Source: a virus | Taxonomy: Duplodnaviria > Caudoviricetes | Reading direction: 5' to 3' (one strand) | Length of the DNA stretch: 35,753 nucleotides | Virus record (IMG/VR): IMGVR_UViG_3300017909_003568 | Coordinates: 1 to 35,753 of that record | In this document: positions 20,792 to 26,800 of the stretch, piece after piece | Numbering within the stretch: position 1 is the stretch's first letter | Layout: every line of letters starts with the position of its first letter | Position numbers and translations under genes: made by a program | The notes under the pieces: model-generated | What the model saw: only the letters and a program-made list of their open reading frames with translations | What the model was told of the DNA's origin: nothing | Databases searched by the model: none

Positions 20792-20919
20792 AGGATGAGT
20801 TTACTGAAAGATTGTTAGATGCAGCTATGGAGTTTATTATTGAGATTGACAAGGGTAAACTATTTAAAGAATTTTTGAAGGAAAGAAAGGATATAGATCT
20901 TGAAATCAAAGAAAATTAA
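20788..20919 (+). CDS. 43-aa hypothetical protein; not in the ORF track
   Basis: GAGGA SD and ATGA coupling; MKDEFTERLLDAAMEFII... Confidence 0.5.
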   Translation: MKDEFTERLLDAAMEFIIEIDKGKLFKEFLKERKDIDLEIKEN

Positions 20920-22039
20920 GGGACACTTAGATTTATTTAGTGGTATAGGTGGCTTTTCTTTAGCACTAGAAAGATCTGGAATAAAACCTAATTGGATTGG
21001 GTTTAGTGATATAGATAAATATGCAAATGAAATATTTCAAAGGAGATTTAAAGATGCAGAAAGACTCGATGACATTACCAATGTTCGATGCGAAGACTTG
21101 CCAAAAGACATTGACTTGCTTACTGGAGGATTCCCATGTCAAGCATTTAGCCAAGCAGGGAAGCGATTGGCTTTTGAAGACACCAGAGGGACACTCTTTT
21201 ATGAAATTATACGGATTCTCAAATATTACATCGAGATTGAAAAGCCCATCAAACATTTTGTACTCGAAAATGTTAAAGGCTTATATAGTGCAGGAAATTA
21301 CACAGCATTTAGTACAATCTATAGCTTTCTCTCCGACATTGGTTATTCCGTTGAGTGCCAATTGCTTAATAGTAAGTTCTTCGGAGTCCCACAAAACAGG
21401 GAACGAATCTATTTCGTTGGTAGATATTCTCCAGGAGGAAGTAGACCAAAAGTATTTCCTATCAGACAAAATGCAAGAGAGGTTAGTAAGAATGGAGAAG
21501 TAAAGTTTAGCAATTCTGATCCAAGAGGTTTTGGTTGGAGAGATTTATCACCTACTTTAGCAGCAAGAGATTACAAAGATCCAAAATGGGTAAAACTAAA
21601 TAAGCCCGATCAGGTAGGTAAGGTGTGTGATGGTGATGGTGGTAGAGTATTTTCTACTAATGGTACATCTTGCACTTTAAAAGCACAAGGTGGTGGATGG
21701 GGAGCAAAGACTGGTTTGTATGAAGTTAAATCTTTAAACAAAAACCAAATTGATAAATTAAACAAAATGGAAGTTGATGAAAAAACTAGTGGAACATTAA
21801 CACAAGCAATAGGTAGAGGCGGATCTTCTAAAGAATATTTAGCAATGCTTAAAAGAAATCAAAAGATAACAGGACAAATTAGAAGATTAACACCAATAGA
21901 GTGTGAAAGGCTGCAAGGTTTTCCAGATAATTGGACAGAAGGACAATCAGATACTCAAAGATATAAACAATGTGGTAATGCAATAACTGTAAATGTTGCA
22001 GAGGCTATATTTAGAAAGTTATATGAAGTTCGCAGGTAA
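20900..22039 (+). CDS. DNA (cytosine-5) methyltransferase
   Basis: Motif I DLFSGIGG, IV GGFPCQAFS, VI LENVKGL, VIII PQNRERIY, IX RRLTPIECERLQGFPD, X YKQCGNAI. Confidence 0.96.
   Translation: MKSKKIKGHLDLFSGIGGFSLALERSGIKPNWIGFSDIDKYANEIFQRRFKDAERLDDITNVRCEDLPKDIDLLTGGFPCQAFSQAGKRLAFEDTRGTLFYEIIRILKYYIEIEKPIKHFVLENVKGLYSAGNYTAFSTIYSFLSDIGYSVECQLLNSKFFGVPQNRERIYFVGRYSPGGSRPKVFPIRQNAREVSKNGEVKFSNSDPRGFGWRDLSPTLAARDYKDPKWVKLNKPDQVGKVCDGDGGRVFSTNGTSCTLKAQGGGWGAKTGLYEVKSLNKNQIDKLNKMEVDEKTSGTLTQAIGRGGSSKEYLAMLKRNQKITGQIRRLTPIECERLQGFPDNWTEGQSDTQRYKQCGNAITVNVAEAIFRKLYEVRR
21054..21503 (+). CDS. Nested alternative-frame gene inside the MTase (149 aa; beta-subunit-like)
   Basis: AAGGAG at 21040-21045, 8 nt before ATG 21054; open +1 frame ending SLVDILQEEVDQKYFLSDKMQERL. 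Confidence 0.7.
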   Translation: MQKDSMTLPMFDAKTCQKTLTCLLEDSHVKHLAKQGSDWLLKTPEGHSFMKLYGFSNITSRLKSPSNILYSKMLKAYIVQEITQHLVQSIAFSPTLVIPLSANCLIVSSSESHKTGNESISLVDILQEEVDQKYFLSDKMQERLVRMEK

Positions 22040-22376: not shown

Positions 22377-23337
22377 TACTTACACTATATAAATTATGGG
22401 CTACTTGTCTTACGTTTAGAGTGTTTTCTCTAAAATTACATATAGAAAATTGGTCAGGATTGTTATTAGTATTGTCAGGTTGAAATATAAATGGCAGAGT
22501 ACCACCTAGTGTACAATTCCACACAAAATTAAAGCTATTATCTGACATCATAGGGTTTGGCTCTATATTTGTAAAATCTGTATCATCTGATACTATTGTG
22601 TTAGAAACCTCATGTTCAATCCACATATCACTTTCTGATATATAAGAAAATGTTAAGTTCCAACTTCTAAGTCCTTTACGACCTATACCACTTTTAACTT
22701 TTTGGTCAAATTGGCTACTGTCAGTAGTATCAAGTTCGAATGGTGGGTATTTATAAGTAGTACCATCAGGACCATTCATAGTCCATTCTGTTGGTCCATC
22801 ATAGTATATGTTAGCAAGTGTCTTACCACCTACAGTTTTTTGACGTTTAATACCATCAAATCGTCTTGACATTGTAAGGTTAAGGTCAGGCGAATTAGGA
22901 CAATTAAAATACTTACCTACCACAAAAGAACCTAATTGTTTTGAAGTTGCTTCTTCATTATCTTCTAACTGTTGTTCTATTGTGAACTTTTCCCAAACTT
23001 GATTATCTTCTGCAAATGTAAACATAGTTGTACCATTATACACCTTATCATAATTAATTACATTAGTTGTTGGTGGTATTTCAGTAGTATTACCTTTTAT
23101 TGCTAATGTAGTGCCTGCTAAATTGTGATTCAGTAAACCAACAAAATTAATTGGAAAAGATGTTTTTATGTTATTATCAGCACCTATTTGAAATGATGTT
23201 CCCAAGTAAGGATTTGCACAATTCATATATAATAATTCTGCACCACCATTATCACCATCCCAACCTAGTTGTCCTGTGGCGTGTAAAAATGTAGGCATAT
23301 CTACATAAAATCTTGGCGTTTTAACTTGTTTTCCCAT
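22354..23337 (-). CDS. Tail protein, probable distal-tail (Dit-like) protein
   Basis: C-terminal RSWNLTFSY...PFIFQP...YSVSITIDE pattern; last gene of the tail operon. Confidence 0.5.
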   Translation of the reverse strand: MGKQVKTPRFYVDMPTFLHATGQLGWDGDNGGAELLYMNCANPYLGTSFQIGADNNIKTSFPINFVGLLNHNLAGTTLAIKGNTTEIPPTTNVINYDKVYNGTTMFTFAEDNQVWEKFTIEQQLEDNEEATSKQLGSFVVGKYFNCPNSPDLNLTMSRRFDGIKRQKTVGGKTLANIYYDGPTEWTMNGPDGTTYKYPPFELDTTDSSQFDQKVKSGIGRKGLRSWNLTFSYISESDMWIEHEVSNTIVSDDTDFTNIEPNPMMSDNSFNFVWNCTLGGTLPFIFQPDNTNNNPDQFSICNFRENTLNVRQVAHNLYSVSITIDEIA

Positions 23338-23885
23338 TAATATCCTCCTGATCCTCCTGAACTAACACCACTTGTAGATGTTGTTGTTCTACGTCTTGTT
23401 TTAGTTTTTGTTTTATCTACTTTAGGCAATCCATAATCAGGCAGATTGTATGAAGTTATTGCAACTTTACCTTTTCTTCTTTTATCTTTAAAATTATCCC
23501 AAGTGTCTGCTTCTATATCCATAGACCAATTACTTGATCCCCAAGACAATCCACTCTTTGTAAATTTTTCTGTATATCTTTCTGCTTTATTGTTACAAGC
23601 AATAACGTCAATAACTTGCATAAAACCTTCATATGTAAATAATATTTGATTATTTAAAGTTAAATTATTTAATGTAAATATAATTATAGTATTATTGTTA
23701 CCTTGTAAATACCAACCATCTAGAAGTTGTGGTGTTATAACAGGTTTTCCTTCAAATTTTATTTGTAAACCTGCAACACCAGATAATGAATTTACATAAC
23801 ATTCGCCATCATCGCAGGATATAGTTACAATTTCTTCTAATCTAGTGTTTTTGTTGTATTTTTTATTTAAATCTATAACTTTCAT
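23337..23885 (-). CDS. Cohesin-like beta-sandwich protein with a basic, Ser/Gly-rich tail
   Basis: VAGLQIKF, GWYLQGNNNTIIIFTL, ILFTYEG, VIDVIAC strand pattern; coupled (TAATG) to the dockerin-bearing gene. Confidence 0.5.
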   Translation of the reverse strand: MKVIDLNKKYNKNTRLEEIVTISCDDGECYVNSLSGVAGLQIKFEGKPVITPQLLDGWYLQGNNNTIIIFTLNNLTLNNQILFTYEGFMQVIDVIACNNKAERYTEKFTKSGLSWGSSNWSMDIEADTWDNFKDKRRKGKVAITSYNLPDYGLPKVDKTKTKTRRRTTTSTSGVSSGGSGGY

Positions 23886-26800
23886 TAATTACCTAATATT
23901 TCTCCTACTAAAGTTACTACATCTAACACATTAACAATACCATCACCTGTTATGTCTGCATTATCGCTAACTTCTTGTTCTCCTAATATCATTTGCAATA
24001 AAATAACCACGTCTAATACATTAACTATTCCATCTTGGTTTATATCGCTAGATAAATCAGTATAAACACCATCTTGTGTAAATGTTAAATATTGAACATT
24101 ACTATCATTATATACTTTTATCATGTATGTGACTTCTATGACATCATCTTCTGAATCTAATTGAAAATCATATTTTTTAGATAAATCAACTTTTCCATTG
24201 TAATTATTTGCCATATTAGATATACTTTTTGTATGATTTATAATATTCATAGCTGAAGGTGCATTTTCTTCTGAATATATACCATTTTGTAATGGTTCTA
24301 TATTACTTTCTTCAGGAAATGTTATAGGATTGCCACTACTTGTATAAACATTAGTTACAAATATATCATAATCCCAATCCTGATCTAAATTTGTTACTAC
24401 ATTAGCTGTTATTGGATTTAATAAATTATTTCCATTTTCCCAACTAAATTGAAATGTTGGTAATTCAGGCTCATCAACAAACTCATCTACTACATTATCT
24501 TGATTGTAATTAGGATTATCAGTTGGATCACCTAAATCAAAATTACCTTGTCCATCATTACCTATAGTATCCACAACATTTTCATCTGCAAACATATCCT
24601 GATCAGGAAACCCATAGTCACCACGATGCATTTGAATAGCCTCAATAGTAACTTTGTCTAATGATTTTGATACTTTTGTAACAAAGAACACATCGTATAT
24701 ATACTGACCATTTCTTTGTTGTGGTTTTGTATAGTCATAACCGAAAGCAAGTTTATCACCTAAAAGCTGATCAAACTTAATATAATCTCCTACTTCTAGG
24801 TTAATATAACTTATTGGTAGTTGTAGTTTTGTTATTAAATGTTGATTAGCATACCAACATACTAACTTTTTTTGTAATTTTCTAGCTGTAATATCATCTC
24901 TAATGTAATCAGTTTCTACTTCTAATTTACATTCGTTAGTTTTTAATCCAAAATATTCAACATTATATTGATTTTCAGGTTGCCCTACATACATAAATTC
25001 AGATAAAGTATCTAAATTTTCATATGTATTACCATCATTGTCAATTAAAGGGTAGCCTGTTTCTTTGTCATATTCACCCGATGCATAATTTTTTTTGTAT
25101 TTTACATTTACTTGATTGTATATATCATCTATTTTTGTAAGTTCATACGAATAAGTAATTATATCTTGATTATTTAAAATAACAACGTCATCATATGATT
25201 CTATAATTTGTTTGTTTTCTAGAAATTTAAACTGTCCAAGCTCATTAAAGCTAGGTATAATTGTGGATGATTTAAACATATTTTCAAATACTTCTTTTGC
25301 TTCTTGCTGTTCATTTAATGTAAAAGCATATTGCCAATTATCTGTTGTATTTGAAAGTTGTGCCTCTCCCTCATAATTTAATTCTTCATTTAATATATCT
25401 AACATAATTTTATCTGCTTGTGTATATGGGTTTAATATGTTAGGTTCTACCATTTTAAATTGTAGTTCTATAGGTCCATAATTACCATATTCTACTGAAT
25501 TTCCACCAGGTAATTCAAAAAGTTTTATTTTATATAATCCTGTACCATCATCATATGGATATTGCCAATTTATATATGTTCCATCCCATATAGTAAAATC
25601 TTGTATTAATACATCCAATTGTATTTGATTATTATCAATAAAATTTTGCAAATATTGTGCAGAAGAAGCATTGTCAGATACATCTGTACCTAAAGTAAAT
25701 ATATATATTTTTTCACCTAAGTCATCTTCTGTAACTTCTACATTATGTACATTTATAAAATCTGAAACAACATTTTGATAATCTGATTGTGCTACTCTAC
25801 CTGCTACATCTAAATAAAAAGTTTCGTTTAAGGGATCAGTTATAACTGCATCTTGTAAAACCCAAGCATTGTATAATTGTGCTGCAACAAAACCTTCATC
25901 ATTACCTACTGTCGAACCTTTTTTAGGATATTGTGGTATACCAAATTGTACACTATTAAAATCAGTAGTTTTGTTAAAAGATTCTGATATAGCTTCACCA
26001 TTAAATACTGCTACTGATCTTTCTGTGCTATCTTGATTGTCATAATTTACTTGTTCAAAATCAGAATTAGGTATGTTAGGTGGATCTAAATTTAATAAAT
26101 CAGTTGCATATAAAGCATTTTCATCTTGTATACCTTGTTCTAATACAACTAAAAAATTATTAGTCCAAAATTTTGCTGGATATGCAAATCTAGAATTTTG
26201 TTGAGAACTCATATCACTTAAAGAATGATATTCTGCATCATAAATTAATTTAGTGACACAATCGTAGTTTCCTACATTTTCTTTTAATATAAGACGTATA
26301 TAAGCACCACCTGATTTATTGTATTCAGGTCTTTGTCCATCTACATTTCTTCCACATATATACAATCCATCGGTTATAGTGCCATTTTGTATTCTTATAG
26401 TAGGAAAAAATCCATCCCTATTGTTTTGTAACCATTGAGTATCAACAGCAGAAAAAACTCCACCATTTACATTTTCATTAGATAATGTAGGTTGCCACCA
26501 AGTTTGATCGCCATTACTCCAATTATCATCATAAGCATCTGTATTAAATATATGCTCTTTTTGATAAGGCTCAAATCCACCTGATTCACCACTAACAAAA
26601 TTGGTAAATCCATATATACGATTTATAGAATCAAGATTACCACCTTGAATATTGTCACAATATGTAAAACATTCAATTTTTTCTATAGGTCTATAGAATC
26701 TAGTTGGTAAACCATATAAACCTTGTAATGCTACTAAAGCATCAGAATTTATAACTATAGATGCAGATGTGTCATTACCATTACTTTGTTTAAAATTGTA

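Follow-up and report, generated by a model that had tools for sequence, protein, structure and literature searches.

Why should the tail-tip protein of a tailed phage end in a dockerin, and is the small gene that follows it the cohesin to which that dockerin would bind? The question is raised by IMG/VR record IMGVR_UViG_3300017909_003568, a complete virus record of 35,753 bp with direct terminal repeats and 31% guanine plus cytosine, the whole of which is referred to here as the window. The presence of genes for capsid, tail tube, tape measure and fibre identifies it as a tailed phage, probably a siphophage, and on the minus strand a run of genes encodes a tape measure protein, a protein of 1256 amino acids (aa) and proteins of 182 and 327 aa (Table 1). 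A first-pass annotation read the 1256-aa protein as a tail-tip protein with a C-terminal dockerin and the 182-aa protein as its cohesin-like partner, and offered two uses for the pair, a clip that builds the tail tip or a mimic of host dockerins. Cohesin-dockerin pairs are known as cell-surface connectors; here the two domains probably clip together within the virion in a calcium-dependent manner, where phage T5 has its hub-fibre joint.

Pfam Dockerin_1 is matched over its cut-off (22.9 bits) both by the whole 1256-aa protein (29.1 bits) and by its last 55 aa (35.7 bits), and this is the sole Dockerin_1 match in the complete genome. The finer description given at first pass also held: the two 22-aa repeats begin at aa 1204 and 1234 (nucleotides 24046-23981 and 23956-23891) and agree in 16 of their 22 residues, the calcium ligands D/N/D/N/D occupy repeat positions 1, 3, 5, 9 and 12, with Thr at position 3 of the second repeat, and V-L stands at positions 10-11 in both. 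Across 92 phage dockerins the ligand positions are conserved at 88-100% per position, and at positions 10, 11, 17 and 18, which we take to be recognition positions, the phage dockerins agree with those of Marinimicrobia. With the calcium dependence usual for dockerins, both folding and cohesin binding would require Ca2+. Six relatives (L051, L053, L055, L087, L352 and L353) end the hub in tandem dockerins, one degenerate and one host-like.

The protein that carries the dockerin is predicted to be a tail hub like T5 pb3, with the fold of hub domains I-IV. An AlphaFold model of aa 1-1200, built from 59 sequences (predicted local distance difference test, pLDDT, 80), has T5 pb3 (7zhj_b) as its best Foldseek match (E 6e-20), followed by the DT57C and lambda tips, and hub folds are matched by VIA with Z up to 18 over aa 13-1028. 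Phage-tail_3 is matched in 8 of 19 relatives (best E 6e-5), and the gene adjoins that of the tape measure, as expected for a baseplate hub or Tal of the T5 pb3 or lambda gpJ-gpL type. The pb3 match supports the tail-tip identity proposed from the sequence. The acidic linker and beta-rich domain described ahead of the dockerin were both found (aa 1016-1066 and 1066-1197). The linker falls below pLDDT 50 at aa 1023-1032 and 1058-1065; the domain is Ig-like at a generic level (VIA Z 7.3-8.7 over 87-100 residues) and is not conserved in every relative. A large, mainly beta insertion at aa ~200-740 (window 27071-25424) varies among relatives and is a candidate receptor-binding region, and in one subclade (L093-L096, L348 and L364) the hub is split into N-terminal and C-terminal genes.

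The gene for the 182-aa protein is joined to that of the hub by the TAATG coupling reported earlier, and no signal peptide or membrane helix is evident in its product. The alternating beta-strand pattern from which it had been called cohesin-like reappears in a model built from 97 sequences as nine strands across aa 15-108, with pLDDT 85-90 over aa 21-100, while the last ~70 residues are poorly ordered. Foldseek gives four matches at E<=0.001, every one of them a cohesin chain, and among the 48,161 chains compared by VIA the top 16 are cohesins (Z 8.4-10.4, root-mean-square deviation 2.5-4.3 A, ~100 residues). In strand 6 four successive columns are hydrophobic in the phage and the host rows alike, which fits an exposed patch, and this strand is part of what we take to be the dockerin-binding face of cohesins, 8-3-6-5.

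Several results pull the other way: the first non-cohesin in the VIA ranking, YcnI (Z 8.1), follows close behind the cohesins, Foldseek TM-scores to cohesins are just 0.3-0.4, the domain has ~95 aa when solved cohesins have 135-175, none of the 97 family members matches Pfam Cohesin (PF00963) at E<=0.1, and profile searches of the PDB with the domain gave no cohesin. Nor is PF00963 matched by any of seven Marinimicrobia host proteins, and a score of 0.87 to an Atlas cluster with 31% PF00963 is a lead only. What stood of the cohesin claim is the fold, on which two structure searches agree, and what did not is a match at the level of sequence profiles; the partner is thus a predicted compact cohesin by its nine-stranded jelly-roll, and not a member of Pfam Cohesin. 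Prediction of the complex (cohesin aa 12-122, dockerin and two Ca) scored 0.23 where the mark is 0.32, with no controls folded, a value that speaks neither for the pair nor against it, and covariation over 160 pairs (111 phage and 49 host, effective number 126), with kinship uncontrolled, gave a best inter-domain value of 0.17 against 0.11-0.13 in three shuffles.

In total 120 homologues of the 182-aa protein were found, and the cohesin domain profile matches 983 clusters (50% identity) at E<=0.001, not all of which need be viral; a tblastn search of 50,697 GenBank phages gave no match to the protein. The C-terminal GGY is invariant because its codons double as the GGAGGA ribosome-binding site of the next gene. 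Two Megaviridae sample proteins (BFVD A0A5J6VP12 and A0A5J6VLK8) match the cohesin model weakly and may be cellular contamination.

Whether the halves belong together can be judged from related phages. A dockerin lies upstream in all 15 loci retrieved with the 182-aa protein. A larger set, biased in that each locus was retrieved by one of the two halves or by the 327-aa gene, holds 132 hub open reading frames (ORFs), 130 of them with downstream DNA and 63 non-redundant (L120, in which the dockerin is on a separate ORF, was removed as redundant); both halves are present in 61 of the 63, and the other two are L065, where a cohesin is present that the distance filter had missed, and L056. Two further sets were retrieved with neither half as query. 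With the head-tail protein as anchor, the best 80 of 304 loci yielded 57 hubs, of which 43 are complete; the 38 non-redundant ones include 27 with both halves, eight with neither and three with a cohesin and no match to the dockerin profile, of which two have Pfam dockerins over the cut-off and one a dockerin on the adjacent gene. With dockerin-less hubs as anchor, 72 hubs came from the best 80 of 120 loci; 62 are complete and 33 of them non-redundant, and all 33 lack the cohesin as well, so that hubs retrieved without either half as query comprise 30 with both, 41 with neither and none with one alone. Four hubs in Marinimicrobia prophages also have neither. The co-occurrence by which the first-pass annotation proposed to judge the pairing is therefore found, with no complete case of one half except L056.

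These counts need to be read with some caution. The cohesin of L056 is accompanied by a degenerate dockerin only (20 bits, under the cut-off), dockerins without an adjacent cohesin exist in other phages, on a protease, and when 54 chosen hub cores are placed in a tree, a single branch (99/97) separates all 32 hubs with dockerin and cohesin from the rest, so that the co-occurrence counts are not independent events. The distribution of the pair is one of a single gain followed by long retention. A single gain could account for the linkage by itself, and with the cohesin identity coming from predicted structure alone it might be supposed that the genes were co-acquired from a host as passive cargo, the smaller encoding some other Ig-like tail subunit, and stayed linked without binding each other. 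Such an account is very improbable, as both halves are kept between hubs that are just 22-25% identical, with the calcium ligands conserved at 92-100%, and they remain paired through fusion, fission and relocation.

The dockerin-bearing proteases belong to an unrelated phage group of 19 loci; the protease is trypsin-like, carries its dockerin at the C-terminus and has no adjacent cohesin. At a conserved Cys codon 12 of these loci have an in-frame TGA (L103, L107, L109, L112, L116, L117, L119, L123, L132, L133, L135 and L153), likely to be read as selenocysteine, and seven have Cys (L125, L126, L130, L134, L140, L156 and L170). Trypsin-like selenoproteins have been reported from ocean metagenomes in PMC2398784, a paper in whose text the word 'phage' is absent. 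A 128-aa gene that lies behind dockerins in other phages was considered as a cohesin and set aside, there being no profile match and the protein appearing nuclease-like by eye. One record from a giant-virus bin, L155, has three dockerin-bearing ORFs and may be cellular contamination.

The rearrangements themselves are informative. In three records (L348, P0142 and P0168, the first two of which are close kin in the hub tree) hub core, dockerin and cohesin form one chain, and in these the cohesin consequently belongs to a tail-hub protein; BFVD match A0A516LNX3 (1389 aa) may be another such fusion. In L364 the dockerin has been relocated to the start of the hub-core gene and in L339 and L054 it is on its own 217-aa gene, the cohesin gene being retained each time. 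The cohesin may also carry other domains: in L297 it is fused to Laminin_G_3, a lectin domain (E 2e-23), as it is weakly in P0225, and P0194, P0196 and P0268 have other long extensions. Proteins of 481-2000 aa in the 90% database yielded no longer cohesin forms, a miss since fusions exist. A programmed frameshift or read-through that joins hub and cohesin is unlikely because the spacing of the two genes ranges between -40 and +23 over 61 pairs.

It could be argued that the 182-aa protein is an assembly chaperone, which covers the hydrophobic dockerin while the tail is being built and is missing from the mature virion; it is small, cytoplasmic and translationally coupled to the hub, and its poorly ordered C-terminal residues would suit such a role. 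We consider this improbable given that three records have the cohesin fused to the hub core and others have it joined to large folded domains, and a chaperone would leave the retention of the dockerin unexplained.

The suggestion that the host is to be sought in Marinimicrobia has been strengthened by the closest cellular dockerins, by cellular homologues of the cohesin and by related prophages. The window dockerin retrieved 62 cellular loci, of which 11, the two best (61%) among them, are from Neomarinimicrobiota; many others are from Bacteroidales and Clostridia, and the dockerin alone is therefore a weak host clue. A cohesin profile made from phages only matches four of five Neomarinimicrobiota genomes (best E 2e-23). 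In 19 of 20 host loci fetched the order is passenger, dockerin, short linker, cohesin-like domain and sorting tail, with 7-14 aa between dockerin and cohesin in 17 loci and Por_Secre_tail in all seven host proteins tested. When 301 genomes of Marinimicrobia (SAR406; NCBI Fidelibacterota) were searched with a mixed phage-host cohesin profile 59 were matched, and a dockerin in cis was present in all 30 further loci fetched, at least two of which repeat earlier ones. A hub profile matches five of the 301, and prophage-like regions of Marinimicrobia contigs of 31-502 kb contain four complete hubs (a judgement that leaves out two contigs of 2 kb), with capsids 29-33% identical to that of the window in three of the regions. 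In three genomes whose prophages lack the dockerin the number of dockerins is 0-2 and nothing cohesin-like is matched, when 109 and 47 dockerins were counted in two others, G002 and G004 (all of these genomes being incomplete bins), and several Marinimicrobia have at least 16 proteins that combine dockerin, cohesin and sorting tail. It is because of this difference in dockerin number that the host is likely a dockerin-rich member of Marinimicrobia. A full-text search found no literature in which Marinimicrobia and dockerins are paired.

A host so rich in these domains makes the second use proposed at first pass worth weighing, namely that the hub dockerin mimics those of the host and docks on host cohesins as a receptor, the phage cohesin being a decoy, or a cap that comes off in exchange for the host cohesin, or else a means of capturing host dockerins. 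The dockerin is at the distal end, where siphophages have receptor-binding parts, its host-like recognition positions mean that it could equally bind host cohesins, which counts against a clip that is purely internal, and some Marinimicrobia offer the at least 16 cohesin-like domains and 47-109 dockerins that are nearly or wholly missing where the prophages lack dockerins; the six relatives with tandem dockerins and the one with a dockerin in the next tail gene could be left with a free plug. We nevertheless hold receptor mimicry to be the less likely reading by some distance, though a serious one. The host cohesin has a dockerin of its own chain beside it in 49 of 50 loci fetched, the fused phage forms are unable to shed their cohesin, lectin payloads fit an adaptor better than a cap, and three relatives (L056, L336 and L358) have by eye lost the host-like dockerin and keep a divergent dockerin alongside a divergent cohesin. 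Furthermore export of the phage cohesin to act as a decoy at the surface is unlikely because the protein has no N-terminal hydrophobic run, such a run exceeding 2.0 in one of 121 family members. Fusions and payload swaps thus favour an internal clip over host mimicry, and the sources searched hold no virion or proteomic data for these uncultured phages. The two are not mutually exclusive, and it is conceivable, if rather unlikely, that the clip doubles as an infection trigger: on a cell displaying dozens of dockerin-cohesin proteins, host cohesins would replace the cap and pull on the hub linker to open the tail, as in the fibre bending of T5. Were that so, partner exchange of the cellulosome type would both build the tip and read an undescribed surface protein network of Marinimicrobia, an abundant marine phylum.

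The internal clip may have arisen when an ancestor acquired a dockerin-cohesin cassette from an exported Marinimicrobia protein, which would have been fused to the hub and then split at the short linker. A trimeric hub would present three dockerins, each with one cohesin subunit, and the clip would hold the 182-aa protein at the far end of the tail tip, where in T5 pb3 joins the N-terminal domain of the next gene product, pb4. The payload of the cohesin varies, being a lectin domain in some relatives and here an extension of ~70 aa with a basic tail, which would cap the tip or touch the host surface. Since dockerins require Ca2+, which is low in the cytosol, the clip may fully close only in seawater after lysis.

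According to PMC10038345, hub domain IV of T5 pb3 is succeeded by a long linker and a pair of FNIII domains, which bind the first FNIII of pb4. The T5 tip (PDB 7zhj) and the window hub share the hub fold, the linker and a beta-sandwich extension, and in T5, as in the proposed clip, a second tail protein is attached non-covalently by its N-terminal domain; T5 differs in that its contacts are between FNIII domains and pb4 is a long spike with pb5, whereas the phage has a dockerin, a predicted cohesin and a partner of only 182 aa.

With clostridial type I cohesin-dockerin pairs (PDB 6kgc, 1ohz and 2vn5) and non-cellulosomal cohesins (2vo8 and 2xdh) the phage pair shares the two-repeat dockerin, its calcium-ligand pattern and near-symmetric repeats, and these same cohesins are the best structural matches of the nine-stranded partner. 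The phage pair differs in being virus-encoded within a tail operon, in a cohesin ~40 aa shorter and 2-21% identical to those solved, in the hydrophobic V-L at positions 10-11 and in having neither scaffoldin nor signal peptide. A cellulosome joins a multi-cohesin scaffoldin to dockerin-bearing enzymes; here there is one dockerin in the genome and one cohesin domain per partner. The Marinimicrobia proteins have the same two domains, in the same order and with the same dockerin consensus, but in one chain that ends in a type IX-like sorting tail, whereas the phage usually has two coupled genes and its own extension instead.

Full-text searches, read as titles and the starts of abstracts, returned no report of a cohesin-dockerin pair in a virion, though an annotation may exist in a supplementary table. 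PMC5967307 concerns a likeness to a carbohydrate-binding module and not to a dockerin, PMC3558961 has a single BLAST remark and 10.64898/2026.06.07.730766 concerns bacterial giant proteins. If binding is true, a structural joint in the virion would be a new use of the pair, one fixed in a large marine phage clade, and the natural payload swaps suggest a modular tail-tip adaptor. The locus also gives phages of Marinimicrobia a likely host assignment and a receptor hypothesis, and reveals a predicted compact cohesin missed by Pfam together with a large dockerin-cohesin system in Marinimicrobia.

Table 1. Features of the tail-tip region, in window coordinates.
Feature	Position	Strand	Basis or remark
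Tape measure protein, 797 aa	27655..30048	-	directly upstream of hub; PHROG 3779, E 8e-12
Predicted baseplate hub (Tal / T5 pb3-like), 1256 aa	23885..27655	-	predicted structure and fold matches
Acidic low-confidence linker behind hub core, aa 1016-1065	24461..24610	-	net charge -15 (aa 1016-1066)
Ig-like beta-sandwich ahead of dockerin, aa 1066-1197	24065..24460	-	VIA Ig-domain matches
C-terminal dockerin, aa 1204-1256, two Ca-loop/helix repeats	23888..24046	-	Pfam PF00404
Partner gene, 182 aa	23337..23885	-	TAATG coupling to hub
Predicted compact cohesin-fold domain, aa 18-112	23550..23834	-	predicted structure; homologous to post-dockerin domain of Marinimicrobia proteins
Phage-specific extension (aa 113-155) and basic low-complexity tail	23340..23549	-	aa 113-155 conserved among close relatives
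Conserved tail gene, 327 aa	22354..23337	-	directly downstream of 182-aa gene

The 327-aa protein resembles a distal tail protein (Dit) by gene position only. It has no family or PDB, PHROG or named Atlas match, and its gene has no relative in GTDB contigs. Where dockerin and cohesin are absent its family directly follows the hub, as in 31 of 33 dockerin-less hubs. One member, L166:2317-4128, has an internal dockerin of its own (Pfam 30.5 bits), and the phage that carries it also has a hub dockerin and a cohesin. Finally, on the plus strand a 379-aa ORF (window 20900-22039) has by eye what we take to be DNA cytosine methyltransferase motifs.

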